Assembly (NCBI GenBank): GCA_964515055.1
Contig: CAZEUG010000001.1
Span: 21,921 to 85,920, forward strand
Reading direction: 5' to 3'
Source: an uncultured Oscillospiraceae bacterium
GTDB lineage: Bacteria; Bacillota; Clostridia; Oscillospirales; QAMX01
DNA length: 64,000 bases
The position numbers and the translations under genes are program-made. This document shows positions 2 to 47,989 of this stretch, in pieces (the stretch's first letter is position 1; each line of letters starts with the position of its first letter). The notes under the pieces are model-generated. The model was not told the origin of the DNA and did no database searches. It was given only the letters and a program-made list of their open reading frames with translations.

Positions 2-604
2 AATGAGCTGCCGCCGAAGGTTCGTTCCGTTATGACGCTGCTCTTCTACGCACCGGCCATCTCCGGTAACAGCTACGTCATCTTCTCCTTCATCTTCTCA
101 TCCGATGAATACGGCTTCCTGAACTCCCGGTTGATGAACTGGGGCTTCATCAATGAAGCGATTACATGGCTGAAAGACGAAGACACGATCCCCGGCTGTA
201 TCATCGTGGTTATCCTGTGGCTGTCGCTCGGTACCGGCTTCCTGTCCCTGATCGCTGGCTTCCAGGGTGTTGACCGCGAACTGTACGAGGCAGGCGCCAT
301 CGACGGGATCCGCAACCGTTGGCAGGAGCTGTGGTTCATCACCCTGCCGTCCATGAAGGATCACCTGATGTTCGCCGCTGTTATGACCATCACCGGCTCC
401 TTTGGTATGGGCGCAGTCATTACCAACCTGGTCGGCTTCCCGAGCCCGAACTATTCGGCACACACCATCGTCCACCATCTGGAGGACTACGGGAATACAC
501 GATTTGAAATGGGCTATGCATCGGCCATCGCAACATTGCTCTTTATCCTGATGGTCGCCTGCAACCAGCTTGTTCAGAAGCTGCTCAGAAAGGTAGGGTC
601 CTGA
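2..604 (+). CDS. Carbohydrate ABC transporter permease (MalF/UgpA/LplB type), 5' end cut by window edge
   Basis: The frame is open from nt 2 with no upstream stop. Multi-TM protein with the EAA-loop motif EAGAIDGIRNRWQELWFITLP typical of binding-protein-dependent permeases. Confidence 0.85.
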   Translation, partial: NELPPKVRSVMTLLFYAPAISGNSYVIFSFIFSSDEYGFLNSRLMNWGFINEAITWLKDEDTIPGCIIVVILWLSLGTGFLSLIAGFQGVDRELYEAGAIDGIRNRWQELWFITLPSMKDHLMFAAVMTITGSFGMGAVITNLVGFPSPNYSAHTIVHHLEDYGNTRFEMGYASAIATLLFILMVACNQLVQKLLRKVGS

Positions 605-606
605 TT

Positions 607-1503
607 ATGGAAAGACTGGAAAAGCCAAAGAAGCGCTTCCACTTCTTTAAATCCAAAGCGGGTAACCGTGTCAACCGGTCGCTCTCCGGCGACCTTGGGA
701 TTATCATCCTTCTGTGCGTTTTTGCCGTGATTATGGCAATCCCACTGTACTACGCCATCATTCAGTCGTTGAAACCGCTGAACGAACTGTACATTTTCCC
801 GCCGAGAATGTACGTTTCCGTTCCCACCATGGATAACTACGCGGAACTCTTCCGCCTGATGTCCAGCTCCTGGGTCCCGTTCAGCCGCTACATTTTCAAC
901 ACTGTCATGATCACCGTTGTCGGTACATTCGGCCATATCATCCTCGCATCCATGGCCGCATATCCGCTGGCAAAATACAAATTCCCCGGCAGCGTGGCCT
1001 TCTCAAAAATGGTTCGCTTCGCCCTGATGTTCAACGGCACGGTTTTGACCATTCCGTCCTACATCATCATGGCAAAGCTGGGCTGGATCGATACCTACAT
1101 GTCTGTCATCGTTCCGGCATTTGGTTCACAGCTCGGTCTGTACCTGATGCAGAACTTCATGGCAGACCTGCATGACGCACTCTTCGATGCCGCGAAAATC
1201 GACGGCGCCAAGGAAGGCACCATCTTCTGGAAAATCGTCATGCCGAACGTCAAGTCCGGCTGGCTGACCCTGATGATCTTCTCGGTGCAGTCCCTCTGGA
1301 ATACCAACAACGGAATGTACATCTACAGCGAACCGCTGAAAACCATGCCGTACGCAATCAGCCAGATTACAAGCGGCGGTTATGCCCGCGCAGGCGCAGC
1401 CTCGGCCGGTGTCGTCGTCATGATGCTCGTTCCGATCATCGTGTTCATTATTTCGCAGAGCAACATCCTTGAAACCATGCAGAAGTCTGGTATTAAAGAA
1501 TAA
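607..1503 (+). CDS. Carbohydrate ABC transporter permease (MalG/UgpE/LplC type)
   Basis: Starts 2 nt after the previous stop. Carries the EAA loop DAAKIDGAKEGTIFWKIVMPNV and about six hydrophobic segments. Confidence 0.88.
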   Translation: MERLEKPKKRFHFFKSKAGNRVNRSLSGDLGIIILLCVFAVIMAIPLYYAIIQSLKPLNELYIFPPRMYVSVPTMDNYAELFRLMSSSWVPFSRYIFNTVMITVVGTFGHIILASMAAYPLAKYKFPGSVAFSKMVRFALMFNGTVLTIPSYIIMAKLGWIDTYMSVIVPAFGSQLGLYLMQNFMADLHDALFDAAKIDGAKEGTIFWKIVMPNVKSGWLTLMIFSVQSLWNTNNGMYIYSEPLKTMPYAISQITSGGYARAGAASAGVVVMMLVPIIVFIISQSNILETMQKSGIKE

Positions 1504-1520
1504 AAGGAGGTCGAGTCCGA

Positions 1521-3095
1521 ATGCGGAAAAGAATTGTTGCAGCGATCCTGCTGCTGCTGCTTTTCACGGCACAGGCAGTGTCGGTCTTGGCCGCACCGCC
1601 ATCCAGATCCTATACGTATAACACGAACGCACTCCCGGTCGCATCTCCGAACCCGTATACCTTCACTGGCGATATCGACGGTGTCAGCTACGGTATCGGC
1701 AAATTCTCGGAACCGGAAGACTTCGTGGTCGATTCAGAGAACTTCATCTATCTGCTGGATTCCGGCAATAAACGGATCGTCGTCTTTAACGGAGACATGG
1801 AGCTTGTCCGCGTGATTTCCGATATCTCCTACAAAGGCGAACAGATTACGATGAAAGCCCCGACGGCTCTCTACATCTATGAATTCTTCGACAGCAAGCT
1901 CCTCTACATCGCCGATACGGAAAACAGCCGGATTTTCAGAATTGATCTGAAAGAACAGCTCCACGGCGAAGTCGATGTGGATGCACCCGCCGAAGTCGAT
2001 AAGATGTATGGCAAACCGTCCATTGACATCATCGCTGCCGATACCCCGTACTATCCGACCAAGTTCATTGTTGACCGTGCAGAACGCATCTTTGTCCTCG
2101 GTCGAACCATCAACCGTGGTATCATCAAGCTGACGAAGGACGGCGCTTTTGACTCCTTCTTCGGCGCACCGGATGTCTCCTATTCGCTGACTGAAAAAAT
2201 CTGGCGTATGCTTTCCACCCAGGAACAGCTCGACAAGAGCTATAAGTTCGTTCCGACCGAATATTCCAATATCGCGCAGGACTCCCGCGGCTTTACTTAT
2301 GTAACGCTGAACGCCATTTCGCGTGCGAAGCTCTATAAGACGTTCTTCACGGAAATTGATGACGACGTCCGTAAGGACAACGCCGTCGTCAAGAAGCTCG
2401 CTGCCGACGGTACGGATATTCTGGTTCGCCACGGCTACTTCCCGCCGGTTGGTGATATCTCGATTTACAACCCCAACGCGGTGGAAGCGGTTCTGGCCGG
2501 TATGTCCTCGTTCGTCGATGTCTGCATCAACGACTATGACGTCTACACCATCATCGACGATATGCGCTGCAAGGTTTTCACCTACGACAATGAAGGCAAC
2601 CTCCTCTTTGTATTCGGTGGCTCCGGCACGCAGGACGGCACCTTCCAGAAGCCGGTCGCAGTTTCCTACTTCAAGGAAAATCAGATTGCAATTCTTGATA
2701 AGCGCACTGCCTCCATTTCCTTCTTCAAGCCGACAGACTACGGTATGACCATTCTGGCCGCCGTTGAATCCTACCAGGACGGCGAATACGAGAAGTCGGA
2801 AGAGTTGTGGAGCCGTGTACTTGAAATGAACTCCAATATGACCCAGGCGTACAGCGGTGCCGGTAAGTCGCTGCTTCGCGCTGGCGAATATAAGAGAGCA
2901 ATGGAGTATTTCCGGATTTCCAAGAACAAAGAGTATTACTCCAAGGCACTGGAACAGTACATCGGGCAAATCATCAGTGATAAATTCACCTACATTTTCC
3001 TGATTCTGGTTCTCTGGTACCTGATTGCCAAGATCTGGAAGCTGATCAAGAGATTCAGACGATTCCTCCGTGAAGGCGTAAAAAAGGTGGTGTAA
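1521..3095 (+). CDS. Surface-anchored NHL-repeat beta-propeller protein with TPR-like C-terminal region and C-terminal TM anchor
   Basis: RBS AAGGAGG lies upstream. N-terminal signal peptide (LLLLLFTAQAVSVLAAPP). Repeated NHL-like blades (FIYLLDSGNKRIVVFN, LLYIADTENSRIFRID, IAILDKRTASISFFKP). TPR-like stretch YQDGEYEKSEELWSRVLEMN...RAGEYKRAMEYF. Terminal hydrophobic helix FTYIFLILVLWYLIAKIW. Confidence 0.75.
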   Translation: MRKRIVAAILLLLLFTAQAVSVLAAPPSRSYTYNTNALPVASPNPYTFTGDIDGVSYGIGKFSEPEDFVVDSENFIYLLDSGNKRIVVFNGDMELVRVISDISYKGEQITMKAPTALYIYEFFDSKLLYIADTENSRIFRIDLKEQLHGEVDVDAPAEVDKMYGKPSIDIIAADTPYYPTKFIVDRAERIFVLGRTINRGIIKLTKDGAFDSFFGAPDVSYSLTEKIWRMLSTQEQLDKSYKFVPTEYSNIAQDSRGFTYVTLNAISRAKLYKTFFTEIDDDVRKDNAVVKKLAADGTDILVRHGYFPPVGDISIYNPNAVEAVLAGMSSFVDVCINDYDVYTIIDDMRCKVFTYDNEGNLLFVFGGSGTQDGTFQKPVAVSYFKENQIAILDKRTASISFFKPTDYGMTILAAVESYQDGEYEKSEELWSRVLEMNSNMTQAYSGAGKSLLRAGEYKRAMEYFRISKNKEYYSKALEQYIGQIISDKFTYIFLILVLWYLIAKIWKLIKRFRRFLREGVKKVV

Positions 3096-37354: not shown

Positions 37355-37375
37355 GAGAACGGTCGATCAAAGCGC

Positions 37376-37417
37376 AAAAAAAGTCAACGACCCGACAGCG
37401 GGTGGTTGACTTTTTTT
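37376..37417 (-). terminator. Terminator after the minus-strand Gfo/Idh/MocA gene (A/T runs on both sides)
   Basis: GTCAACGACCCG-ACAG-CGGGTGGTTGAC (one mismatch) flanked by A7 and T7 runs. Confidence 0.85.
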
Positions 37418-37437
37418 GCAGACTGCGTGCAGTGCCG

Positions 37438-38523
37438 TCAGTCAAAATAGATGGTTTTTCCGGTTTCGGCCGATGTGTAGATGGCTTCGATGATCTGCGA
37501 AACGACAGCTGCCTTCCGGCCGGGAGCCAGCAGGGGCGTCCCCTCCGTGATGGCGCTGATCCACTGGTTCATGTCGTACTGGCATTCATCCAGCTCACGC
37601 CCCTTGAAGAGGTCACGGGTGTAGCGGTTCGGTTCCAGCTCCTGAGTAAACAGCGAACCGTTGACTTCGCCGTTGATCCGGACGTGGCCGTTCTTCATGG
37701 AGAGCCCGGCGCGGTCGCCAACGATGATCGGTGTGTAGCCACACTGATCGGATTCCATGTTGATCGCCCAGGAGGCCTCAATGTGCATGGCACAGCCGTT
37801 CCGGAAGCGGATAAAGCCCATGGCGGAGTCCTCCACCTGGTACTCCTCCTCTGTAAACAGACGACCGTTGTTCGTTTCGGCGCATTTGGCACCCAGCTTC
37901 CGGTAGGAAACGCCGGTGACACTGGCGACGTCGTAGTTGTCGATGATAAACATGGCGGAGTCGATGGAGTGCGTGCCGATGTCGATCATGGGGCCGCCGC
38001 CCTGCTTTTCATAATCAAGGAAAACGCCCCAGGTCGGAATGCCGCGGCGGCGCAGATTGCGCGCCTTGACGTAGTAGACGTTGCCCAGCATTCCGTCGCG
38101 GACGACGTTGCGGGCGAGCTGGAACATGGCGGTGCTGCGCGTCTGATAGCCGACAGACAGGAGCTTCCCGGCTTTTTCAGCCGCCTCACACATGGCGAGC
38201 GCATCCGCATAGGTCTTGGCCATTGGCTTTTCGCTGTAGACGTGCTTTCCGGCCTTGAATGCGTCAATCGTGATGGGCGCATGGCTGGAGTTTGGCGTGC
38301 AGACGTGGACGGCTTCGATTTCGTCCATCGCGAGCAGCTCATGATAATCCTCAAAGACGCGGGCGCCTTCTACCCCGTATTCCCGGGCAGCCTTTTCGGC
38401 GCGCTCCCGAATGATGTCACAGAATGCGACAATCTGAATGTTTTCAACGCTTTTCAATCCGGGAAGATGCTTGCCGTTTGCAATTCCGCCGCATCCGATG
38501 ATGCCGACTTTTACAGGTCTCAT
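37438..38523 (-). CDS. Gfo/Idh/MocA family NAD(P)-dependent oxidoreductase (paralogue 1)
   Basis: MRPVKVGIIGCGGIANGKHLP Rossmann N-terminus and an EKPMA motif. The ATG at 38523 has a GGAGGA RBS. Confidence 0.85.
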   Translation of the reverse strand: MRPVKVGIIGCGGIANGKHLPGLKSVENIQIVAFCDIIRERAEKAAREYGVEGARVFEDYHELLAMDEIEAVHVCTPNSSHAPITIDAFKAGKHVYSEKPMAKTYADALAMCEAAEKAGKLLSVGYQTRSTAMFQLARNVVRDGMLGNVYYVKARNLRRRGIPTWGVFLDYEKQGGGPMIDIGTHSIDSAMFIIDNYDVASVTGVSYRKLGAKCAETNNGRLFTEEEYQVEDSAMGFIRFRNGCAMHIEASWAINMESDQCGYTPIIVGDRAGLSMKNGHVRINGEVNGSLFTQELEPNRYTRDLFKGRELDECQYDMNQWISAITEGTPLLAPGRKAAVVSQIIEAIYTSAETGKTIYFD

Positions 38524-38543
38524 ATCAAATCCTCCACTGTATC

Positions 38544-38561
38544 TGAGCACAGCCGTGCTCA
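38544..38561. promoter_or_regulatory. 18-nt palindrome in the leader of the minus-strand oxidoreductase gene (candidate operator or 5' hairpin)
   Basis: TGAGCAC-AGCC-GTGCTCA lies between the predicted -10 and the RBS. Confidence 0.3.
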
Positions 38562-38580
38562 TTCGATTTCTGACAGAATC

Positions 38581-38609
38581 AGTATAACACAATCGACCGT
38601 CAAATGCAA
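38581..38609 (-). promoter_or_regulatory. Candidate SigA-type promoter for the minus-strand oxidoreductase gene
   Basis: On the minus strand: TTGCAT, a 17-nt spacer, then TATACT. Confidence 0.45.
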
Positions 38610-38706
38610 TCCTGCTTCCGATGAAAAACGGACGGATTCATTTATCCTGAAGCGTGGTTGTTTGCAGGATATGGGAAAAAGTTTTTGAAAAAAAAGTGGA
38701 ACGCTG

Positions 38707-38735
38707 TTGAAATCAATGCACAAATCCTGTATAAT
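38707..38735 (+). promoter_or_regulatory. SigA-type promoter for the TIM-barrel / sulfatase-like / oxidoreductase operon
   Basis: TTGAAA, a 17-nt spacer, then TATAAT. Confidence 0.6.
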
Positions 38736-38801
38736 GAAGGTACCGGATTCTGCCGGCATCAAGGGGTCAAAAGCCCCATGCTTTGATCGGAGGAGATCTT
38801 T

Positions 38802-39599
38802 ATGATTCAGCTTGGCGTCAATACCGTTTTGTATAAGGCATTTTCTCTGCGGGAAGCCGTGGAAAATCTGAAAAAAATCGGCTATGACGGATTTGAAATT
38901 TCAGCCATTGAAGGAATGTGCGAACACCTGAACCTCAATGACTGGCGCAGTCAGAAAAATGAGATTTCGGAGCTCTGCGAAGAATTTGATATGAAAATTC
39001 TTGCGACAGAGGTGGCCAGCACGGATCCTGCCCGCCTGACGCTTGCATTTGAAGCGGCCAGAGAACTGGGCATCCCTGTTGTCAACATCGGCCCGCGGGG
39101 CAAATCCGATGATGAAGCCGATCTGGTCGACTGCATCGCCCACATGAACACGCTGGCAAAGCTCGCCGAAAGCTATGAAGTGACGCTGTGCATGAAGGCA
39201 CACGTCGGCTCCAGCGTCTACAGCACACCGACTACACTTCGCATGATCGAAGGCGTCAAGAATCCGTACTTCGGAATCGATATGGACCCCAGCCATATTT
39301 TCCGCTGCGGAGAGGAACCGGAGAACGCACTGTCCGCCGTTCTCCCGGCCATGCGTCATATCCATATCCGTGACTGCCACGGAAGACAGCAATCGCCCGG
39401 CCTGCCGCTTCAGCAGACCTGCGGCACAGGTGATATCAATTTGCGCGGCTATCTGGCCGAAATGGTCAAGCAGGGCTATCAGGGCCCGGTCGATCTCGAA
39501 GTGATCGGACCGGAACTGTCGCTGGCGGATGCCAACATCGTCGCCGCCGAGAGCTACGGTTATCTGAATGCCTGCCTGAAAGAGCTGGGCGCCCGCTGA
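38802..39599 (+). CDS. Xylose isomerase-like TIM-barrel protein (sugar phosphate isomerase/epimerase family)
   Basis: The N-terminus LGVNTVLYKAFSLREAVENLKKIGYDGFEIS and the HIHIRD metal-site motif are typical of this fold. Confidence 0.8.
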   Translation: MIQLGVNTVLYKAFSLREAVENLKKIGYDGFEISAIEGMCEHLNLNDWRSQKNEISELCEEFDMKILATEVASTDPARLTLAFEAARELGIPVVNIGPRGKSDDEADLVDCIAHMNTLAKLAESYEVTLCMKAHVGSSVYSTPTTLRMIEGVKNPYFGIDMDPSHIFRCGEEPENALSAVLPAMRHIHIRDCHGRQQSPGLPLQQTCGTGDINLRGYLAEMVKQGYQGPVDLEVIGPELSLADANIVAAESYGYLNACLKELGAR

Positions 39600-39615
39600 A
39601 AAGGAGGACTTTCTA

Positions 39616-41001
39616 ATGAAAAAAAAGCCGAATATTCTGTTCCTTGGCATTGATTCCTGCCGAGCCCTCAATCTGAGCCTCTGCGGGTATCACCGCCAGA
39701 CCACGCCGCATATCGACCGCATGGCGGAGGACGGCGTCAATTTCGTCAACTGCTTCTCTCCGAGCATTCCGACCCCTCCGGGCTATTCCGCACTGCTGAC
39801 CGGTCGGGACTGCTTCGGCACCGGCGTCGTGACGCTGCGCAATGTGCCGGAACTCGAAAAGGGCATCACGCTGCAGGAAGAACTGGCCAAAAACGGCTAC
39901 AACTGCACCTGCATCGGCTTCGGTGAGGAACCGTATACCCATGGCTTCCATAAATACATCAACTACTCCGGCTGGGGCGCAGACCGCCCGGACGGCAAAT
40001 CGCACAAAGCGGAAAACATGAACGACGTCGCCATCCCCGAGCTGAAACGCCTGGCCGCGGAGGATCAGCCGTTCTTCCTCTTCCTGCGCCACATGGATCC
40101 GCATTCCCCGTACCTCCCGCCGGCACCGTTCGACCGGATGTTCCACTCCGGTGACGAATGCGACCCGAACAACCACTCCCTGGACGATCTCTACAACTTC
40201 AAACCGTTCCGCGACTATTTCTGTGAATGGTTCCCGGCCGGATGCACCGACAAGGAATATGTCAACGCCCAGTACGACGGCGCCATCGCCTACATGGACA
40301 GCTGCATTCAGCGCATCTTCACCACTGTGAAGGAACTCGGCATCGAGGACGAAACGCTGATTGTTCTGACGAGTGACCACGGCGAAACGCTGGACGAGCA
40401 TGAATGCTACTATGACCACCACGGCCTGTATGAATGCACGCTGCACGTCCCGCTGGTCTTCAAATTCCCGGGCATTGTGCCGGAAGGCTATGTGTTTGAC
40501 GATTATGTCCAGCAGAAGGACGTCATGCCGACGATCCTGGAGCTGCTTGGCATCGAGACTGACCTGAAATTCGACGGCCGCAGCCTTGTCCCGTTCTGGA
40601 CGGGCGAAGAACGCGCTGCCGAACCGGAAATGTACCTGACCGAGTCCACCTGGATGCGGAAGCACGGCTGGCGGACACCGGAATGGAAGCTGATCGTCGC
40701 ACTGGAGCCGGACTTCCACTTCAAGCCACAGGTGGAGCTCTACAACCTGATCAAGGATCCGGACGAGCTGCATAACGTCGCAGACGAGGAACCGGAAGTC
40801 GTGAAAATGCTCACCAAGCGCATGGAAGACCACATCGCAAAGCGCAAAGCGGCCTACCAGACGGAAAACCCGATCGACCTGGCCGGAACGAAATGGAACC
40901 CGCTGGGCCGTCCGTTCGAATCCTGCGAGGAAGCGTACAACACCCTGCACATCGGCGACGCCAGCGCGGCACAGAAGCTCCAGTCGCACGAAAAGAAATA
41001 A
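39616..41001 (+). CDS. Sulfatase-fold (alkaline phosphatase superfamily) enzyme lacking the Cys/Ser-x-Pro-x-Arg formylglycine motif; no signal peptide
   Basis: NILFLGIDSCRALNLSLCGY, TSDHGE and the overall layout match type I sulfatases. The position of CxPxRxxxLTG reads TPPGYSALLTG. Confidence 0.75.
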   Translation: MKKKPNILFLGIDSCRALNLSLCGYHRQTTPHIDRMAEDGVNFVNCFSPSIPTPPGYSALLTGRDCFGTGVVTLRNVPELEKGITLQEELAKNGYNCTCIGFGEEPYTHGFHKYINYSGWGADRPDGKSHKAENMNDVAIPELKRLAAEDQPFFLFLRHMDPHSPYLPPAPFDRMFHSGDECDPNNHSLDDLYNFKPFRDYFCEWFPAGCTDKEYVNAQYDGAIAYMDSCIQRIFTTVKELGIEDETLIVLTSDHGETLDEHECYYDHHGLYECTLHVPLVFKFPGIVPEGYVFDDYVQQKDVMPTILELLGIETDLKFDGRSLVPFWTGEERAAEPEMYLTESTWMRKHGWRTPEWKLIVALEPDFHFKPQVELYNLIKDPDELHNVADEEPEVVKMLTKRMEDHIAKRKAAYQTENPIDLAGTKWNPLGRPFESCEEAYNTLHIGDASAAQKLQSHEKK

Positions 41002-41019
41002 GCAGAACCGGAGAAGGAT

Positions 41020-42021
41020 ATGCAAAGAGTTTGTGTGATTGGCCTTGGCCATATCGGAAATCTGCATTCGCGGATTTATCAGGGGTGCCAGGAGGCAGAG
41101 CTGGTCGGCGTGTGCGACCTGATTGAGGAGCGTGCAGCGGCCGCCGGAAAGGTCTATGGCGTTCCGTACTACCTGGACGCACAGCAAATGCTGGACGAGC
41201 TGAAGCCCGATCTGTGCAGCGTTGCGACAGGCGGCTATGAATACAGCTCAGACCATTACAAGCCGTCCATGCAGGTGCTGGCCTCCGGCGCACATCTGCT
41301 GTGCGAGAAGCCAATTTCCAATGACATCGGCCATGCGCGGGAAATGGTGGAGCTGGCAGAAAAGAACCATCGCTGCTTTGGCATCGACTTCAACCACCGC
41401 TTCACCCCGGCTTCCTTTGCCGCGGAACGCTGGCAGAAGGAAGGCCGCCTGGGTGACCTGCTGTTCTGCAATATGGCGCTCTGGATTGGCAAGCCCGGCT
41501 CCTTTGAATCGCCGTATTACCACCTCAAGGCGCTGAACCCGCATAGCGTGGACATGATGCGCCACTTCATGGGCGATGTCGAAAAGGTGCAGTGCTTCGC
41601 GATGAAAGCACCGGGGCGCGATATCTGGTCGAGCGCATCCATCAATATGTATTTCAAAAATGGAACCATCGGCCACCTGACCTCCAGCTATGACCTGGCT
41701 CGCGGTCATCCGATGGAACGCTGCGAGGTTGCTGGAACCAGGGGGAGAATGGTCATCGAGGATATGTGGCGCGAAGCGACACTGTACCCGGCTGACGATA
41801 TGACCAAGCTCTGCTATACGAATCCGGTCTTCGGCGGTTATTCCAACTTTGACGATACGTTCCGCTGCCGTATTGAGACGTTCGTCCGACAGGTGGACGG
41901 TGGTGCAGCACCGGAGGAGATCAACGGCAGCGGCCGGGACGGCCTGGAGGCGCAGCGCGTCATCCATGCGGCGATCAGAAGTCTGGATGAAGGACGGATC
42001 GTCGAGGTTGCCGAAATTTGA
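41020..42021 (+). CDS. Gfo/Idh/MocA family oxidoreductase (paralogue 2)
   Basis: MQRVCVIGLGHIGNLH Rossmann N-terminus and a CEKPIS motif. Confidence 0.85.
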   Translation: MQRVCVIGLGHIGNLHSRIYQGCQEAELVGVCDLIEERAAAAGKVYGVPYYLDAQQMLDELKPDLCSVATGGYEYSSDHYKPSMQVLASGAHLLCEKPISNDIGHAREMVELAEKNHRCFGIDFNHRFTPASFAAERWQKEGRLGDLLFCNMALWIGKPGSFESPYYHLKALNPHSVDMMRHFMGDVEKVQCFAMKAPGRDIWSSASINMYFKNGTIGHLTSSYDLARGHPMERCEVAGTRGRMVIEDMWREATLYPADDMTKLCYTNPVFGGYSNFDDTFRCRIETFVRQVDGGAAPEEINGSGRDGLEAQRVIHAAIRSLDEGRIVEVAEI

Positions 42022-42101
42022 CCCATCCCTGCATGAATTTGTCCCCAAACCCCGGCCGGCGTGTGCCGGGAAAACCATAAAAAACAGGAGTTGACATACT
42101 T

Positions 42102-43214
42102 ATGGCGATTAAAACAGGCGTCGTTGGTATGGGCGGCATCGGTTATACCCATGCACGCGCATATGCGGCGGACCCGCTGGCAGAGCTGATTGCTGTCTGC
42201 GATATCAACCGCGAAGTGGCCGACAAGGCCGCGGAAGAATTCCACGTCAAAGCGTATTATTCGCTCAAGGAAATGATCGAATCGGAGCCCGATCTGGAAG
42301 CCGTCTCGATCTGCACCAGCGGCTACGAAAACGCTTCCTTCCACTTTGAACCGGCCATGGAAGCCCTGTCCTACGGGAAAAAGGTGCTCTGCGAGAAGCC
42401 GCTCTGCGCGGACATCCGCGATGCGCGTGAGCTGGTCAAATACGCTCTGGACAACAAGCTCTATCTGGGCTGCGACCTGAACCACTATTTCACAGACCTT
42501 GCCCTGCAGGCCAAAAAGCTGCAGGAGGAAGGCAACATCGGCGAGCTGGCCTACTGCCTCCATAAGGTCGGCTTTGACGGCAGCGAAATCGGCTACGGCG
42601 GCGTCAATGACCCGAAATCCCGTTGGCTCAAGCCGTATTCCCACTGCAAGGCCTTCCTGACGCATCCGTTCTCCGTCATGCGCTACTTCTGCGGCGATAT
42701 CACCCACGTCCAGGCCTTCCTGGATCGTCCGGGCGTCCGCAAGACGGCGGGAGATCCGATGCTCTCCATCAACAGCGTCAACTGCAAGTTTGAAAAAGGC
42801 GGCGTCGGCGTCCTGCTCAGCCAGCGCGGCGATGCGCGGTTTGGTCTCGGCGGCTGGTGGAGCTATGAGCATGCCGGTACACGCGGCACGTTCTGCATCG
42901 AAAACTGCGTCGAAAAGCTGACGTATTGGCCGGGTCAGCGCAAAAACGAAGAGGGCAAACTCGAAATGCCTGAACCGGAAGTCACCAATACTGGCATCAA
43001 GAACTTTGATGCGACCTTCCCGAAGCGGATTCACGCCTGGCTGGAGGATCTGACCAACAAGGTTCACTACGAATTCATCCGCGCCTCCGGCCGCGATGCA
43101 CTGGCCACCCTCGAATACATCGAAGCGGTCATCCAGTCCTACGAAGCAGGCGGCGAGATGGTTCGTCCGCATCCGCTGCCGGCGATCCACGGCACCCCGG
43201 AATATATTCACTGA
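42102..43214 (+). CDS. Gfo/Idh/MocA family oxidoreductase (paralogue 3)
   Basis: IKTGVVGMGGIGYTHARAY Rossmann N-terminus and a CEKPLC motif. Its last 51 nt lie inside the tandem repeat. Confidence 0.85.
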   Translation: MAIKTGVVGMGGIGYTHARAYAADPLAELIAVCDINREVADKAAEEFHVKAYYSLKEMIESEPDLEAVSICTSGYENASFHFEPAMEALSYGKKVLCEKPLCADIRDARELVKYALDNKLYLGCDLNHYFTDLALQAKKLQEEGNIGELAYCLHKVGFDGSEIGYGGVNDPKSRWLKPYSHCKAFLTHPFSVMRYFCGDITHVQAFLDRPGVRKTAGDPMLSINSVNCKFEKGGVGVLLSQRGDARFGLGGWWSYEHAGTRGTFCIENCVEKLTYWPGQRKNEEGKLEMPEPEVTNTGIKNFDATFPKRIHAWLEDLTNKVHYEFIRASGRDALATLEYIEAVIQSYEAGGEMVRPHPLPAIHGTPEYIH

Positions 43215-43223
43215 CCTTTCAAA

Positions 43224-43267
43224 CCGCCTCTCCGATGCGCTCCAATCGCCCGGAGAGGCGGTTTTTC
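43224..43267 (+). terminator. Rho-independent terminator after oxidoreductase paralogue 3 (inside repeat copy 1)
   Basis: CCGCCTCTCCG...CGGAGAGGCGG followed by TTTTT. Confidence 0.85.
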
Positions 43268-43409
43268 TGTCGATTGCCCCGGACTGCTAACCGCCAGGGA
43301 CGCAAACGGCCGCACCGCCCCGTGTGCAACGAGTGGTCAGGCAGATCAAGGCCGGGACTGATTCCATCCGGATTCAGCCCCGGTTTTGGTGCGGAAAAAG
43401 AAGAGGTTC

Positions 43410-43438
43410 TTGCAATTTTTACATTTAAAGCGTATAAT
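43410..43438 (+). promoter_or_regulatory. SigA-type yggS promoter, copy 1
   Basis: TTGCAA, a 17-nt spacer, then TATAAT. Confidence 0.6.
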
Positions 43439-43510
43439 AAAAAAGACGATCGGAACCTGCAACGGACAGTACCCGAACCGCCCAAACCAAGCGAATGGAA
43501 GATGAATTGC

Positions 43511-44071
43511 ATGACAGAGCCGGAAACCAACCGGATTCAGGATATCCAACAGAAAATCAAAGCCATCCAGCTGCGCGTCGCCGAAAGTGCAGCACACGCC
43601 GGGCGGACGCCCGCCTCTGTCACCCTGCTGGCGGCGACAAAAACGCGAACCTGCGACGAGGTGCGCGCAGCCATTGATGCCGGAATTGACGCCGTCGGCG
43701 AAAACCGCGTGCAGGAGCTACGCGATAAGCTCGCGCTGCACGCATACGACGGCTGCCCGCTGCACCTGATCGGCCCACTGCAAACCAACAAGGTGAAATA
43801 CCTGATCGGCCATGTCGCCATGATTCACTCGGTTGATTCAACCCATCTGGCCGATTGCATCCAGCAGCTGTCAGCACGTGCTAATGTGCAGACGGACGTC
43901 CTGATCGAGGTCAACATCGGCGGAGAGGCCAGTAAATCCGGTGTCACCCCGACAGACGCACAGCGGTTGGCAGAGCATCTCCTGACGCTGTCCGCAGTTC
44001 GCCTGCGCGGACTGATGACCCGTCCGCATCCGCTGCCGGCGATCCACGGCACCCCGGAATATATTCACTGA
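43511..44071 (+). pseudogene. Chimeric ORF: first 170 codons of yggS fused in frame to the last 16 codons and stop of the upstream oxidoreductase
   Basis: The translation ends ...LRGLMT|RPHPLPAIHGTPEYIH*. It lacks the YggS C-terminal third (the SMGMSRD...RVGSAIFG region). It has its own promoter, RBS and terminator copies. Confidence 0.8.
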
Positions 44072-44080
44072 CCTTTCAAA

Positions 44081-44124
44081 CCGCCTCTCCGATGCGCTCC
44101 AATCGCCCGGAGAGGCGGTTTTTC
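44081..44124 (+). terminator. Duplicate of the 43224 terminator (inside repeat copy 2)
   Basis: Identical sequence at +857. Confidence 0.85.
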
Positions 44125-44266
44125 TGTCGATTGCCCCGGACTGCTAACCGCCAGGGACGCAAACGGCCGCACCGCCCCGTGTGCAACGAGTGGTCAGGCA
44201 GATCAAGGCCGGGACTGATTCCATCCGGATTCAGCCCCGGTTTTGGTGCGGAAAAAGAAGAGGTTC

Positions 44267-44295
44267 TTGCAATTTTTACATTTAAAGCGTATAAT
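44267..44295 (+). promoter_or_regulatory. SigA-type yggS promoter, copy 2
   Basis: Identical to 43410-43438. Confidence 0.6.
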
Positions 44296-44367
44296 AAAAA
44301 AGACGATCGGAACCTGCAACGGACAGTACCCGAACCGCCCAAACCAAGCGAATGGAAGATGAATTGC

Positions 44368-45102
44368 ATGACAGAGCCGGAAACCAACCGGATTCAGGAT
44401 ATCCAACAGAAAATCAAAGCCATCCAGCTGCGCGTCGCCGAAAGTGCAGCACACGCCGGGCGGACGCCCGCCTCTGTCACCCTGCTGGCGGCGACAAAAA
44501 CGCGAACCTGCGACGAGGTGCGCGCAGCCATTGATGCCGGAATTGACGCCGTCGGCGAAAACCGCGTGCAGGAGCTACGCGATAAGCTCGCGCTGCACGC
44601 ATACGACGGCTGCCCGCTGCACCTGATCGGCCCACTGCAAACCAACAAGGTGAAATACCTGATCGGCCATGTCGCCATGATTCACTCGGTTGATTCAACC
44701 CATCTGGCCGATTGCATCCAGCAGCTGTCAGCACGTGCTAATGTGCAGACGGACGTCCTGATCGAGGTCAACATCGGCGGAGAGGCCAGTAAATCCGGTG
44801 TCACCCCGACAGACGCACAGCGGTTGGCAGAGCATCTCCTGACGCTGTCCGCAGTTCGCCTGCGCGGACTGATGACCATTCCACCGGTCGGAGAAGAGCC
44901 GCGCCGCTATTTTGCGACCATGCGCACGCAGTTTGAGCAGATGCGTCAAAATCTGCCGGCTTCATTTGATACACTGTCTATGGGCATGAGCCGTGATTTC
45001 GAAACGGCCATTGAAGAAGGTGCAACCATTGTCCGCGTGGGCAGCGCGATTTTCGGCGCCCGCCCGGCCAATCCGGTTCGGAAAGCGGAGGAACAGGCAT
45101 GA
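44368..45102 (+). CDS. yggS: YggS-family pyridoxal-phosphate homeostasis protein (intact copy)
   Basis: LLAATKTR (PLP Lys), GENRVQEL, HLIGPLQTNKVKY, LRGLMTIPP and LSMGMSRDFETAIEEGATIVRVGSAIFG motifs. The start is 44368 or 44359. The ORF-track start at 44092 is rejected. Confidence 0.88.
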   Translation: MTEPETNRIQDIQQKIKAIQLRVAESAAHAGRTPASVTLLAATKTRTCDEVRAAIDAGIDAVGENRVQELRDKLALHAYDGCPLHLIGPLQTNKVKYLIGHVAMIHSVDSTHLADCIQQLSARANVQTDVLIEVNIGGEASKSGVTPTDAQRLAEHLLTLSAVRLRGLMTIPPVGEEPRRYFATMRTQFEQMRQNLPASFDTLSMGMSRDFETAIEEGATIVRVGSAIFGARPANPVRKAEEQA

Positions 45103-45425
45103 GCCATAAATCAGAAAATGTCGCCTTTGTCTGCGAAAACTGTGGAAAAGAAGTGCAGCCGGTGACAAACGGCAGCTATCGGAATCACTGCCCCTATTGC
45201 CTCTGCTCCAAACACGTAGACTGCCTGCCCGGCGATCGCGCAAGCACCTGCGGCGGAATTATGGATCCGGTCGGCATCCTTTACAATCCGGCCAAGGGCT
45301 GGCAGCTGATTCATCAATGCCGCACGTGCGGTACGCGCTCCAAAAACCGAATCGCGGAAGCGACCATCCAGGAAGACGACCAGGCGCAGATCCGCGCACT
45401 CATGCAGCGAACCGCCAGAGCATAA
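45099..45425 (+). CDS. RNHCP-domain zinc-ribbon protein
   Basis: Contains the literal SYRNHCPYC motif plus CENCG and CRTCG Cys pairs. Its ATG overlaps the yggS TGA (ATGA). Confidence 0.75.
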   Translation: MSHKSENVAFVCENCGKEVQPVTNGSYRNHCPYCLCSKHVDCLPGDRASTCGGIMDPVGILYNPAKGWQLIHQCRTCGTRSKNRIAEATIQEDDQAQIRALMQRTARA

Positions 45426-45454
45426 CGAACCCTTCAGAAAGGTACGGCTACACC

Positions 45455-47989
45455 ATGAATGCACAAACAACCAAACCGTTTCCAAAACTGTCAGAAACGG
45501 CAAAAAAACGCATTGGAATCCTTGAAAAAATTCTGAGAGTCATCGGTAAAGTTCTGGTGACCATTCTGCTCATTCTCCTGTTTACGGGGGTGCTTTGCGC
45601 CGGTGCGTTTGGCCTGTATGTTCGAAAATACCTGCAGCCGGATGTCGACATCGACATTGGCAATATCCGCATGAATTACTCCTCCGTCATCTACGCGACC
45701 AATTCGACCACCGGCGAGAAGACGGAGCTGACACGCCTGTACGGGACGGAAAACCGCGTGTGGGCGAACTACGATCAAATCCCGAAAAATCTGGTGGACG
45801 CCTTTATCGCCATCGAGGATGAACGCTTTGAAAGCCACAAGGGCGTGGACTGGAAGCGAACCATCGGCGCAACCATCAACCTGATCATGCCGTTTTCCTC
45901 CAACTTCGGCGGTTCCACAATCACGCAGCAGGTGATCAAAAACATCACCGGCGACAGCGAGCCGACGATTCAGCGCAAGGTTCTGGAAATCCTCCGTGCG
46001 CTGAATCTTGAACGCCAGCTCTCAAAAGACCAGATTATGGAGATCTACCTGAATACCATCAACCTGAGTCAGGGCTGCTACGGCGTCAGTTCGGCGGCGT
46101 ATGTCTACTTCGGCAAGGAGGTCAGCGACCTGAACCTGGCCGAATGCGCCTGCATCGCCGGGATTACCAACAGCCCTACCTACTACGACCCCTTCCAGAA
46201 CCCGGACAACAACAAGCGCCGTCAGGAGCTGATTCTGGGCAAAATGCTCGAGCTGGGCAAAATTTCACAGAATGAATATGAACGGGCCATCGGCGAGACG
46301 CTGGCCTTTCGGAAATATGACGATGAGGACAACAGCACCACCAACGTGCAGTCGTATTTTGTCGATCTGCTGATCAACGAACTCATCACGGAGCTGAAGG
46401 AAACCTACGGTTATTCGAACACCATCGCCTACAAAATGCTGTATGCGGGCGGCCTGACCATCGAGGCGACCATCGACCCCCGGGTGCAGGCGGCGATTGA
46501 ACAGGTCTATGCCGATCGGGACAATTTCCCGACCGTCAGAGGGACGACACAGCTTGAATCTGCTATGACGATTTTCTCCCCGGACGGCCGCCTGCTCGGC
46601 GTCGTCGGCGGAATCGGCACCAAATACGGGAATCTCGTCCTCAACCGCGCCGTTGCCAGACGCTCACCGGGTTCCTCCATCAAACCGATCAGCGTCTACG
46701 CTCCGGCCATCGAATATGGCCTGATCACGCCATACAGCGTGCTGGATGACTCGCCCTCCAAAATCATCAACAGCTCCGGCGCACTGGTTGAACCGGAATC
46801 TGCCATTCTGATCGGCGGGAACGAGCTCTCTGCATGGCCGGCCAACCAGAACCGCACGTATTCCGGCCGAACCACCATAACGACAGCTGTGGCCAAATCG
46901 CTGAATACCATTCCGGTTCGCGTGCTCGATCTGATGTCGCTGGAAACTGCCTTCCAGTTCGCGACGGAAAACTTCGGGCTGAGCCTGTTGCACCAGCAAA
47001 CCGTCAACGGGGTCTATTATGACGATATGACCTACTCGGCTCTGGCACTCGGCGGCGTCAGCCGCGGCGTTTCGCTGCTGGAAATGACGGCGGCCTATGT
47101 CCCATTTCTGAACGACGGGATTTATGTGGAGCCGACCACCTACCTGCGTGTGCTCGACTCGGACGGAAACGTCCTGATTGATCATACCGCCCGGGAAAAT
47201 GTCGCAATTTCCGCCGATACGGCGTATTATATGCGCGCCATGCTGGAAAACGTGGTGAAAAACGGTACCGGTTCCGCTGCATCACTCAACGGAATTTCCG
47301 TGGCCGGGAAAACCGGTACGACCTCCAACGACTATGATCGGTGGTTCATCGGCTTCACGCCGTATTACGTCGGCGGCGTCTGGTTCGGCTTCGATCTGCA
47401 GAAGGAAATCACCGGCCTGTCGGCCAACCCGGCCGTTTCCACCTGGAAACAGGTCATGGAAATTCTGCATGAAGATCAGCCGGCTGCAACCTTTGAAACA
47501 CTACCCAACCTGCAAACGTATTCCTACTGCCTCGACAGCGGCGGCATCCCAACGGCGGCCTGCAAGGCTGACCCCCGCGGCAGCCGCGTCGCCTACGGGA
47601 AATTCCAGCCGGAGGATGCGCCAAAGTCGCTCTGCTCCATGCATACAACGGTTCAGGTCTGCAGCGAATCAGGCAAGCTCGCCCGCGCACACTGCCCGGA
47701 GGAATCGCTGACAACCGTTTCGCGCCTGAATCTCTACCGCTATTTTGCGGTGCCGAATGTCTCGGTGGCCGACGAGAAATATACCGTCCACTTTGAAGGC
47801 ATCCTCTCCGAACGCATCCTTTCGTATTATTACCCGGCAACCTGCTCTGACGGCTACGCGCTGGAAGGACAGTGCACGATTCATGTCACCGCACCGCAGC
47901 CGACCGACCCGGATGTGACCGATGAAACCGGCGGGACGGATTTCCAACCGATTGAGCCGCCGGAGCCGGATATCACCCCGGACGACTGA
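45455..47989 (+). CDS. Class A penicillin-binding protein (PBP1A-type glycosyltransferase/transpeptidase)
   Basis: N-terminal TM. GT51 motifs (AFIAIEDERFESHKGVD, GGSTITQQ). Transpeptidase SxxK (PGSSIKP) and KTG (GKTGTT). The ATG at 45455 is chosen. Confidence 0.9.
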   Translation: MNAQTTKPFPKLSETAKKRIGILEKILRVIGKVLVTILLILLFTGVLCAGAFGLYVRKYLQPDVDIDIGNIRMNYSSVIYATNSTTGEKTELTRLYGTENRVWANYDQIPKNLVDAFIAIEDERFESHKGVDWKRTIGATINLIMPFSSNFGGSTITQQVIKNITGDSEPTIQRKVLEILRALNLERQLSKDQIMEIYLNTINLSQGCYGVSSAAYVYFGKEVSDLNLAECACIAGITNSPTYYDPFQNPDNNKRRQELILGKMLELGKISQNEYERAIGETLAFRKYDDEDNSTTNVQSYFVDLLINELITELKETYGYSNTIAYKMLYAGGLTIEATIDPRVQAAIEQVYADRDNFPTVRGTTQLESAMTIFSPDGRLLGVVGGIGTKYGNLVLNRAVARRSPGSSIKPISVYAPAIEYGLITPYSVLDDSPSKIINSSGALVEPESAILIGGNELSAWPANQNRTYSGRTTITTAVAKSLNTIPVRVLDLMSLETAFQFATENFGLSLLHQQTVNGVYYDDMTYSALALGGVSRGVSLLEMTAAYVPFLNDGIYVEPTTYLRVLDSDGNVLIDHTARENVAISADTAYYMRAMLENVVKNGTGSAASLNGISVAGKTGTTSNDYDRWFIGFTPYYVGGVWFGFDLQKEITGLSANPAVSTWKQVMEILHEDQPAATFETLPNLQTYSYCLDSGGIPTAACKADPRGSRVAYGKFQPEDAPKSLCSMHTTVQVCSESGKLARAHCPEESLTTVSRLNLYRYFAVPNVSVADEKYTVHFEGILSERILSYYYPATCSDGYALEGQCTIHVTAPQPTDPDVTDETGGTDFQPIEPPEPDITPDD

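Follow-up and report, generated by a model that had tools for sequence, protein, structure and literature searches.

A widely conserved four-gene catabolic module with a threonine-type sulfatase-fold enzyme, and a separate DgpA-like dehydrogenase gene next to it, in an uncultured Oscillospiraceae bacterium

A cluster of five enzyme genes (positions 37438–43214) was analyzed in a 64,000-nucleotide stretch of contig CAZEUG010000001.1 from an uncultured Oscillospiraceae bacterium, referred to below as the window. The locus consists of two independent transcription units that are neighbors in this species: a minus-strand gene for an oxidoreductase of the Gfo/Idh/MocA family (GFO1), and a plus-strand operon encoding a xylose-isomerase-like triosephosphate isomerase (TIM) barrel, a sulfatase-fold enzyme of the alkaline-phosphatase superfamily with a threonine at the nucleophile position, and two further Gfo/Idh/MocA oxidoreductases (GFO2 and GFO3). 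The four-gene operon is a widely conserved cytoplasmic catabolic module. We tentatively propose, at a confidence a little short of even, that the enzymes of this module strip a sugar of an ester group before oxidizing, isomerizing or eliminating, and finally reducing the product within the cytoplasm, with the locus divided into two units as described. A preliminary description, prepared from the window sequence, had assigned the five genes to these families, and Pfam confirmed the three Gfo/Idh/MocA proteins, the TIM barrel and the sulfatase fold.

The module was surveyed in a collection holding one genome per species. The survey yielded at least 587 confirmed matches across about ten phyla, and 80 loci were retrieved, derived from Clostridia, Bacillaceae/Paenibacillus, Planctomycetota, Verrucomicrobiota, Kiritimatiellia, Victivallales, Chloroflexota, Armatimonadota, Spirochaetes, Latescibacterota and candidate phyla. 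Across these lineages the sulfatase-fold enzyme, called the esterase below after its predicted role, retains 57–88% identity to the query. Gene neighborhoods were counted in 54 species-level loci, each extending 4 kb or more to either side of the esterase gene; neighboring genes were grouped by clustering and Pfam scans, and antisense open reading frames (ORFs) called in high-GC loci (clusters 8, 10, 13, 20 and 26) were judged spurious and excluded. The analysis revealed a TIM-barrel orthologue adjoining the esterase gene in 49 of the 54 loci, always accompanied by at least one Gfo/Idh/MocA gene. GFO2, which belongs to the core of the module, has orthologues (57–92% identity) beside the esterase gene in 32 loci, and GFO3, a frequent member, has orthologues (50–93% identity) in 24; the TIM barrel, GFO2 and GFO3 orthologues occur all together in 16. 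No paper describing the module was found in the full-text literature.

Elsewhere the module lies in richer surroundings than in the window. ATP-binding cassette (ABC) sugar or oligosaccharide transporters of the CUT1 or Opp type are present in 29 of the 54 loci, AraC-type regulators in 27 and a second Thr-type paralogue of the esterase in 25, and the glycoside hydrolases encoded nearby belong to GH2, GH4, GH42 and an apiosidase-like group. The module-linked binding proteins are closest to SPH1118 (Opp type; 7ver, E 9e-65) and to 5ci5 (CUT1 type; E 4e-34), neither of which is decisive as a clue to the substrate. Such proteins are encoded, for example, in the loci of Bianquea renquensis (L056; CUT1) and Paenibacillus cisolokensis (L031; Opp type). 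In the window, no transporter or regulator gene was found within about 5 kb on either side of the cluster, in agreement with the preliminary description; this absence is a trait of the window lineage and not of the module, so that the earlier observation stands for the locus and fails as a property of the system. The only ABC transporter genes of the window (32–3095) were considered as the transporter of the module and rejected, their similarity (22–33% identity) being at family level only.

Several other genes recur at the module flanks. URO-D-like genes, of a kind that includes methyltransferases, are found there in likely anaerobes (L001, 1039–2121; L005, 198–2542; L098, 3451–4599), and PhyH-family dioxygenase genes in 11 loci of Bacillaceae, Paenibacillus and Chloroflexota (e.g., L022, 20244–21056). 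It is speculation that the two represent a complementary pair, for example in the demethylation of a methylated sugar. The Bacillus-group loci L033, L038, L053, L057 and L078 have a gene for a small protein of the Anabaena sensory rhodopsin transducer (ASRT) family immediately before the module.

The esterase (461 aa; 39616–41001, plus strand) matched PF00884 at 3e-41 and, in its C-terminal subdomain, PF16347 at 8e-19, and it also matched PF01663 at 42 bits (cut-off 23). All top Foldseek matches were S1 sulfatases or phosphonate monoester hydrolases at 20–25% identity. To judge from its active-site residues, the enzyme is nevertheless not a canonical sulfatase. The aligned site of the formylglycine motif C/S-x-P-x-R is occupied by T-P-P-G-Y (Thr53), which bears out the earlier characterization of the protein as atypical. 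The surrounding motif P-[SH]-[IV]-P-T-x-[PS]-[GA]-Y is kept in 120 of the 120 closest database homologues, and D13, S14, T53, Y57, D161, H163, D254, H255 and H268 are invariant in an alignment of 23 sequences from several phyla (alignment A1). Compared with S1 sulfatases, the active site carries Ser14 for the second Asp and Tyr57 for Arg, together with His255 for Asn and His268 for Lys; in the Agrobacterium enzyme 4uph the position of His268 is taken by the sulfate-binding Lys, and His163 of the P-H-x-P motif is kept. The sulfate-binding Lys/Lys/His/Arg set and the Asp-Asp...Asp-Asn calcium site of S1 sulfatases are not reproduced in the enzyme; the Asp/Thr/Asp/His metal-site pattern of Thr-nucleophile enzymes is (D13, T53, D254, H255). 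Taken together with Asp161, His163 and His268, this pattern may resemble the two-metal site of NPP-type enzymes, and the predicted role of the protein is that of a metal-dependent esterase.

No NCBIfam model reached its cut-off for any of the five proteins. For the esterase the best match was the "arylsulfatase" model PRK13759 (181 against a cut-off of 481 bits), and the EptA and LtaS models matched weakly (30–47 bits). The close family of the esterase is essentially one cluster at 50% identity. In an exhaustive search of 1.84 billion cluster representatives, 6,375 clusters (50% identity) matched at E <= 1e-30. The nucleophile position was then read in the 129 nearest 50%-identity representatives that align over it, and it is occupied by Thr in 122, Cys in six and Ser in one. 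Thr co-occurs with His268 and Asp/Glu161, whereas two matches with Cys-x-Pro-x-Arg show Ala161 and, at position 268, Lys or Arg. The esterase thus belongs to a very large Thr-type clade within the Pfam "Sulfatase" family. The module-linked paralogue and nine Thr-type relatives at greater distance likewise matched no NCBIfam model at cut-off. In the full-text literature no paper on a Thr-type S1-like enzyme was found, and the SulfAtlas paper makes no mention of Thr variants. Among the nearest relatives annotated as "sulfatase" (P0241–P0390), for which no curated family was found, some are long fusions with a second sulfatase-fold domain, tetratricopeptide (TPR) repeats or an FkbM methyltransferase domain.

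The TIM barrel (265 aa; 38802–39599, plus strand; PF01261 4.3e-26) was modeled by AlphaFold with a predicted local distance difference test (pLDDT) score of 96.3. Its structural neighbors in the PDB comprise SCO6571, UlaE, ketose 3-epimerases, IolE and AsbF, at just 14–19% identity, and it is predicted to convert a keto-sugar intermediate as an isomerase, epimerase, lyase or hydratase. Structure searches returned only generic TIM-barrel and S1-sulfatase neighbors and did not narrow the function. GFO2, an NAD-type oxidoreductase (333 aa; 41020–42021, plus strand), and GFO3 (370 aa; 42102–43214, plus strand) are true paralogues with 35% identity (E 2e-55), and GFO2 can be aligned end to end with two structures of inositol dehydrogenases (3ezy and 4hkt). 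The gene families agree with the earlier suggestion that Gfo/Idh/MocA enzymes paired with a TIM barrel point to oxidation followed by isomerization or elimination. By inspection, none of the five proteins has a signal peptide, as had been proposed along with their cytoplasmic location; each begins directly with the first beta-strand of its own fold, for example MRPVKVGIIGCGG and MKKKPNILFLGIDS.

The genes surrounding the module suggest a link to sulfur esters. An orthologous cytoplasmic sulfatase with the Cys-x-Pro-x-Arg motif is encoded in 13 of the 54 loci; its closest match, an exo-2S iota-carrageenan sulfatase (6pt4, E 6e-60), is suggestive and not decisive for the substrate. A sulfotransferase of the type dependent on 3'-phosphoadenosine-5'-phosphosulfate (PAPS; PF13469) is encoded directly downstream of the esterase gene in 9 of the 54 loci and additionally in L097; the loci with this arrangement (L027, L039–L041, L044, L045, L063, L088, L089 and L097) belong to Planctomycetota, Chloroflexota, Armatimonadota and Verrucomicrobiota. 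Adenosine-5'-phosphosulfate (APS) kinase (PF01583) is encoded in 12 loci, and in Paenibacillus its gene lies within the operon (L022, L024, L034, L073, L075 and L085). Of the 54 loci, 27 encode at least one of these three proteins (Cys-type sulfatase, PAPS sulfotransferase, APS kinase). Genes resembling ATP sulfurylase and TauE/SafE-type exporters occur in some loci, as recognized by sequence motifs only and not by a family-library scan. These neighbors support a sulfated substrate, and the earlier idea of a sulfated or phosphorylated sugar gains contextual support from them; it does not follow that the Thr enzyme is itself the sulfatase. In Bacillus-group loci, sat-like and cysC genes lie just downstream of the module.

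GFO1 (37438–38523, minus strand) is a different case. Its Gfo/Idh/MocA domain was detected in a scan of the ORF 37438–38592 (PF01408, 3.9e-31), and the gene likely starts at ATG 38523, 7 nt past a GGAGGA, rather than at TTG 38592; gene calls in other assemblies of the species give an identical 361-aa product. GFO1 matched DgpA over residues 2–355 (PDB 7xr9, E 6.5e-96, 324 bits; 9m3d, E 5.2e-89) and the D-x-x-x-H region is conserved between the two, which identifies it at the level of sequence similarity as a homologue of DgpA-like (C-)glycoside 3-dehydrogenases. No DgpB/DgpC lyase pair was found by GFO1, and the neighbors called in the same and the sister species include no second TIM barrel; the adjacent TIM barrel gave no PDB sequence match to DgpB or DgpC at E < 1e-3. 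To GFO2 and GFO3 it is just 27–29% identical, over about 150 residues of the N-terminal domain only. When 98 loci were queried with the 361-aa protein, a GFO1 homologue was missing from the module neighborhood in 97, and in the sole exception (L037) a homologue with 49% identity lies 7 kb away on the other strand.

Synteny tells the same story. Two further assemblies of the window's species (L099 and L101; about 95% DNA identity) show the gene order of the window. In a sister species (L102–L104; 84% GFO1 identity), GFO1 still lies beside ldh and the oxidoreductase genes, and the operon is absent within 8 kb. In comparably related genomes (89% TIM-barrel identity), including a scaffold from the same metagenome, the four-gene operon occupies a lexA-side neighborhood that lacks GFO1. 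This synteny is decisive: the adjacency of GFO1 and the operon is a recent rearrangement. GFO1 is not part of the conserved module, and ldh is its conserved neighbor. The survey of the five-gene set proposed in the preliminary description thus found joint conservation of four genes and a separate history for the fifth. In the sister species, a malic enzyme gene follows ldh in the conserved GFO1–ldh arrangement.

The palindrome TGAGCAC-AGCC-GTGCTCA (38544–38561), which the preliminary description placed in a divergent control region, is real and occurs in exact form only once in the window. Its position is 21 nt upstream of the start codon of GFO1, between the Shine-Dalgarno sequence and a putative extended -10 element, TGTTATACT (reverse complement of 38581–38589). 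By our own reading of the sequence, the GFO1 promoter would span 38581–38609 on the minus strand, with a weak -35 element TTGCAT (reverse complement of 38604–38609); a consensus scan missed this promoter because the -35 element fits only three of six positions. L099 and the 84% relatives L102–L104 share the sequence TTGTGTTATACT without any change. At the leader position of the palindrome, L102–L104 carry a different 7-bp GC-rich hairpin, so that the position is kept and the sequence differs. The folding z-score of the leader was -4.8 for L102 and -1.0 for the window (window 38524–38620, minus strand; L102–L104 7863–8000). Since structure is conserved here without sequence, the element argues for a stem-loop in the 5' leader of the GFO1 mRNA (minus strand; 7-bp stem, 4-nt loop), which fits better than a protein operator; the operator was rejected in its favor.

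On the proposed reading of the four-gene module, a small esterified sugar or short oligosaccharide would be imported by a transporter encoded elsewhere. The sulfatase-fold enzyme would then strip the O-linked ester by means of a metal center formed by Asp13, Thr53, Asp254 and His255, probably with a second metal site at Asp161, His163 and His268. One Gfo/Idh/MocA enzyme would oxidize a ring hydroxyl to a ketone with NAD+, the TIM barrel would isomerize, epimerize or eliminate/hydrate at the activated neighboring carbon, and the second Gfo/Idh/MocA enzyme would re-reduce the ketone and regenerate NAD+, to yield an ordinary sugar with no net redox change. That the ester is a sulfate is favored by the gene neighborhoods and may well be the case, although we would not call it probable; a phosphate or phosphonate (di)ester, favored by the Thr nucleophile and the probable two-metal site, is possible as well, with slightly less confidence. 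The fuller claim, that the Thr-type protein hydrolyzes a sugar sulfate or sugar phosphodiester with the help of metal and without formylglycine, and forms with the dehydrogenase–TIM barrel–dehydrogenase triad an undescribed cytoplasmic "de-esterify and redox-isomerize" pathway for some widespread esterified sugar, is more doubtful.

Several observations weigh against this proposal. Unconverted Ser or Cys variants of sulfatases stall as the sulfo-enzyme, and characterized Thr-type enzymes of the alkaline-phosphatase superfamily are phosphoryl transferases; a Thr nucleophile is a poor fit for a sulfate ester because its sulfo-enzyme would hydrolyze poorly. Simple desulfation does not account for a PAPS sulfotransferase or APS kinase encoded within a catabolic operon. 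For a phosphate ester, no phosphate-metabolism genes were noticed in the module neighborhoods, which weighs against that option. The second metal site is predicted from sequence covariation only, D161, H163 and H268 co-varying with Thr; AlphaFold confidence is low in these loops, and the esterase model is mediocre as a whole (pLDDT 70.8, below 50 in the nucleophile loop). The TIM barrel has no close characterized relative. Finally, the window operon lacks the transporter, regulator and accessory sulfatase seen elsewhere, and its local substrate may differ from that of the richer loci.

Among the alternatives, obligatory sulfation or group transfer is unlikely: the Thr enzyme would be a transferase or mutase, or the pathway would involve PAPS-dependent sulfation to create a leaving group or a sulfated product. 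A sulfotransferase gene adjoins the esterase gene in four phyla and APS kinase sits inside the Paenibacillus operon, and Thr-type members of the Pfam Sulfatase family such as phosphoethanolamine (PEtN) transferases and LtaS are transferases, with weak NCBIfam matches here. Yet the window operon and its nearest relatives contain neither sulfotransferase nor APS kinase, the Thr enzyme has no membrane anchor, and importers and AraC regulators dominate the neighborhoods, where glycosyltransferase or export genes of the kind expected for biosynthesis did not appear. Somewhat less likely still is an inositol or cyclitol (phosphate) route, in which GFO2 and GFO3 would be IolG/IolW-like, the TIM barrel IolE/IolI-like and the Thr enzyme an inositol-phosphate or glycerophosphoinositol esterase. 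IolG is the best or near-best NCBIfam match of GFO2 (109 bits) and GFO3 (82 bits), and the full-length alignment of GFO2 to inositol dehydrogenases, the IolE structures among the TIM-barrel neighbors and the suitability of a Thr nucleophile for phosphoester chemistry agree with this route. The scores nevertheless fall far under the cut-offs (355 for IolG; 26.8 against 290 for IolE), no IolB, IolC, IolD, IolJ or IolA family was present among the called genes of the window flanks and the examined loci, and the module neighbors are glycoside hydrolases, oligosaccharide transporters and sulfatases, not inositol genes.

The view closest to the preliminary description, that all five genes serve one pathway with three dehydrogenases acting sequentially or stereospecifically on an esterified cyclitol or sugar, the palindrome being the operator of an unlinked regulator, is very unlikely. 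It draws on the divergent, adjacent arrangement of GFO1 and the operon around a common 278-bp control region, which is repeated in the two other same-species assemblies, and on the usual pairing of DgpA-type dehydrogenases with TIM-barrel lyases (DgpABC). Against this, the sister-species synteny largely refutes it, GFO1 being beside ldh and the operon in a different neighborhood; its homologue lies near the module in just one of the 98 loci, its similarity to GFO2 and GFO3 is low and confined to one domain, and the palindrome has conserved its hairpin and not its sequence. The assignment of three dehydrogenases to one pathway is therefore abandoned for a DgpA-like GFO1. Least credible of all, and practically negligible, is the notion that the plus-strand genes are chance neighbors or the sulfatase-fold protein a non-catalytic relic. 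It can appeal to the lack of a canonical sulfatase motif and to nothing more, and it is refuted by the co-location of the four genes over about ten phyla; the level of esterase identity across phyla, together with the invariant metal ligands and Thr, indicates purifying selection on the active site.

The two units are separately delimited, and the bounding terminators of the preliminary description proved real. Directly past the GFO1 stop codon lies a hairpin terminator without assigned strand (37374–37419), an inverted repeat whose 21-nt arms (37374–37394 and 37399–37419) are 95% complementary and flanked by A and T runs. It is located upstream of a near-consensus ldh promoter (TTTACA-17-TATAAT, 37354–37326, minus strand), which follows the terminator directly; GFO1 is monocistronic. 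The operon promoter (TTGAAA-17-TATAAT, 38707–38735, plus strand) agrees with the consensus at 11 of 12 positions, and its -35 TTGAA and -10 TATAAT are invariant across seven relatives, a comparison in which no conserved operator was visible near it. An Rfam scan of the operon leader and the palindrome region gave no match at E <= 0.1, and a riboswitch or other RNA element in the operon leader was rejected on that result. The promoter is near-consensus and appears unregulated. Within the operon the genes are separated by 16, 18 and 80 nt, and transcription would end at an intrinsic terminator (AACCGCCTCTCCG...CGGAGAGGCGGTT followed by TTTTT; 43222–43267, plus strand; hairpin 43222–43263). The flanking genes are housekeeping genes: ldh and a 2-oxoacid:ferredoxin oxidoreductase on one side, and yggS, a small RNHCP protein gene and PBP1A on the other.

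On the latter side, 857 bp are duplicated exactly and in tandem (43164–44020 = 44021–44877). The duplicated segment takes in the terminal 51 nt of GFO3 and the terminator, followed by the promoter and 5' portion of yggS, with a chimeric ORF (43235–44071) as the result. As L099 and L101 carry the segment in single copy, the duplication is an assembly artifact or strain-specific. The mechanically called ORFs of yggS (44092–45102) and PBP1A (45197–47989) are over-extended at their starts: yggS likely starts near 44368 (MTEPETNRIQ...), and PBP1A has 844 aa as called in L099 compared with 930 aa for the ORF in the window. The small RNHCP-family gene is located at 45099–45425.

The bacteria that carry the four-gene set as a conserved module degrade polysaccharides and come from guts, soils, fresh water and hot springs. 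Beyond the module, the formylglycine machinery is missing from a large share of the proteins labeled "sulfatase" or "arylsulfatase A-like", whose chemistry is probably different; this bears on the counting of sulfatase repertoires in Planctomycetota, Verrucomicrobiota and gut Firmicutes. If the proposal is true, the module esterase would give a very large "sulfatase"-annotated clade its first tractable member, and sulfatase counts in genome and metagenome surveys would need revising. Since cultured carriers exist among Paenibacillus (e.g., Paenibacillus chondroitinus NBRC 15376), Bacillus-group genera (e.g., Lederbergia wuyishanensis) and Bianquea (e.g., Bianquea renquensis NSJ-32), and their richer loci include transporter, regulator and accessory sulfatase genes, a direct search for the substrate is feasible. 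The redox logic of the module is already known; as far as our searches reach, its coupling to a Thr-type sulfatase-fold enzyme, the breadth of its conservation and its recurrent association with sulfotransferase and APS kinase are undescribed.

Among known systems, S1 sulfatases and phosphonate monoester hydrolases (4uph, 2vqr, 6pt4) have the same fold as the Thr enzyme, with PF00884 and PF16347, and provide its best sequence and structure matches; the His of P-H-x-P and the D-H pair are common to both, whereas the Thr enzyme lacks Cys/Ser-x-Pro-x-Arg and, unlike the S1 formylglycine sulfatases compared, is cytoplasmic. With NPP phosphodiesterases, PEtN transferases and LtaS it shares the Thr nucleophile and the Asp/Thr/Asp/His metal site, yet overall it is nearer to S1 sulfatases than to NPP or EptA, and it is soluble, without a membrane domain. 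DgpA (7xr9, 9m3d) is matched over its full length by GFO1, which has no recognizable partner of the DgpB/C type. Inositol catabolism likewise combines Gfo/Idh/MocA dehydrogenases with a xylose-isomerase-fold enzyme; the Iol equivalogs were missed (TIGR04380, 114, 109 and 82 bits against 355; TIGR04379, 26.8 against 290), and the remaining iol pathway is not among the genes called in the neighborhoods.

Two pathways that run through keto sugars are closer in logic. The gut clusters AL1-5/BT2156-2160 process 3-keto-glycosides by oxidation, elimination and hydration (bioRxiv 10.1101/2024.03.25.586180) and, like the module, contain two Gfo/Idh/MocA proteins and a "sugar phosphate isomerase", there a 3-keto-glycoside 1,2-lyase. 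Those enzymes are periplasmic, bind NAD tightly, include a DUF1080 lyase/hydratase and lack an esterase; the module has none of these traits, being cytoplasmic and esterase-bearing, and the window proteins score 72, 25 and 41 bits against a cut-off of 750 for BT_2158_fam and 55, 39 and 34 against 650 for BT_2159_fam. In the levoglucosan pathway of Bacillus smithii (LgdA/LgdB1/LgdB2/LgdC), which proceeds by oxidation, beta-elimination, hydration and reduction, the 3-keto sugar formed by a Gfo/Idh/MocA enzyme undergoes elimination and hydration by "sugar phosphate isomerase" TIM barrels, and reduction by a second Gfo/Idh/MocA enzyme yields glucose; the pathway is cytoplasmic, NAD-cycling and Mn-dependent (PMC7676230). 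It has no alkaline-phosphatase-superfamily enzyme and uses two TIM barrels, compared with one in the window operon, and at 109, 48 and 58 bits against the cut-off of 650 of the levoglucosan dehydrogenase model LevoglcsnDh the window proteins are not orthologues. The enzyme families and the logic are nevertheless the same, with GFO2, the TIM barrel and GFO3 reproducing its composition of dehydrogenase, TIM barrel and reductase.

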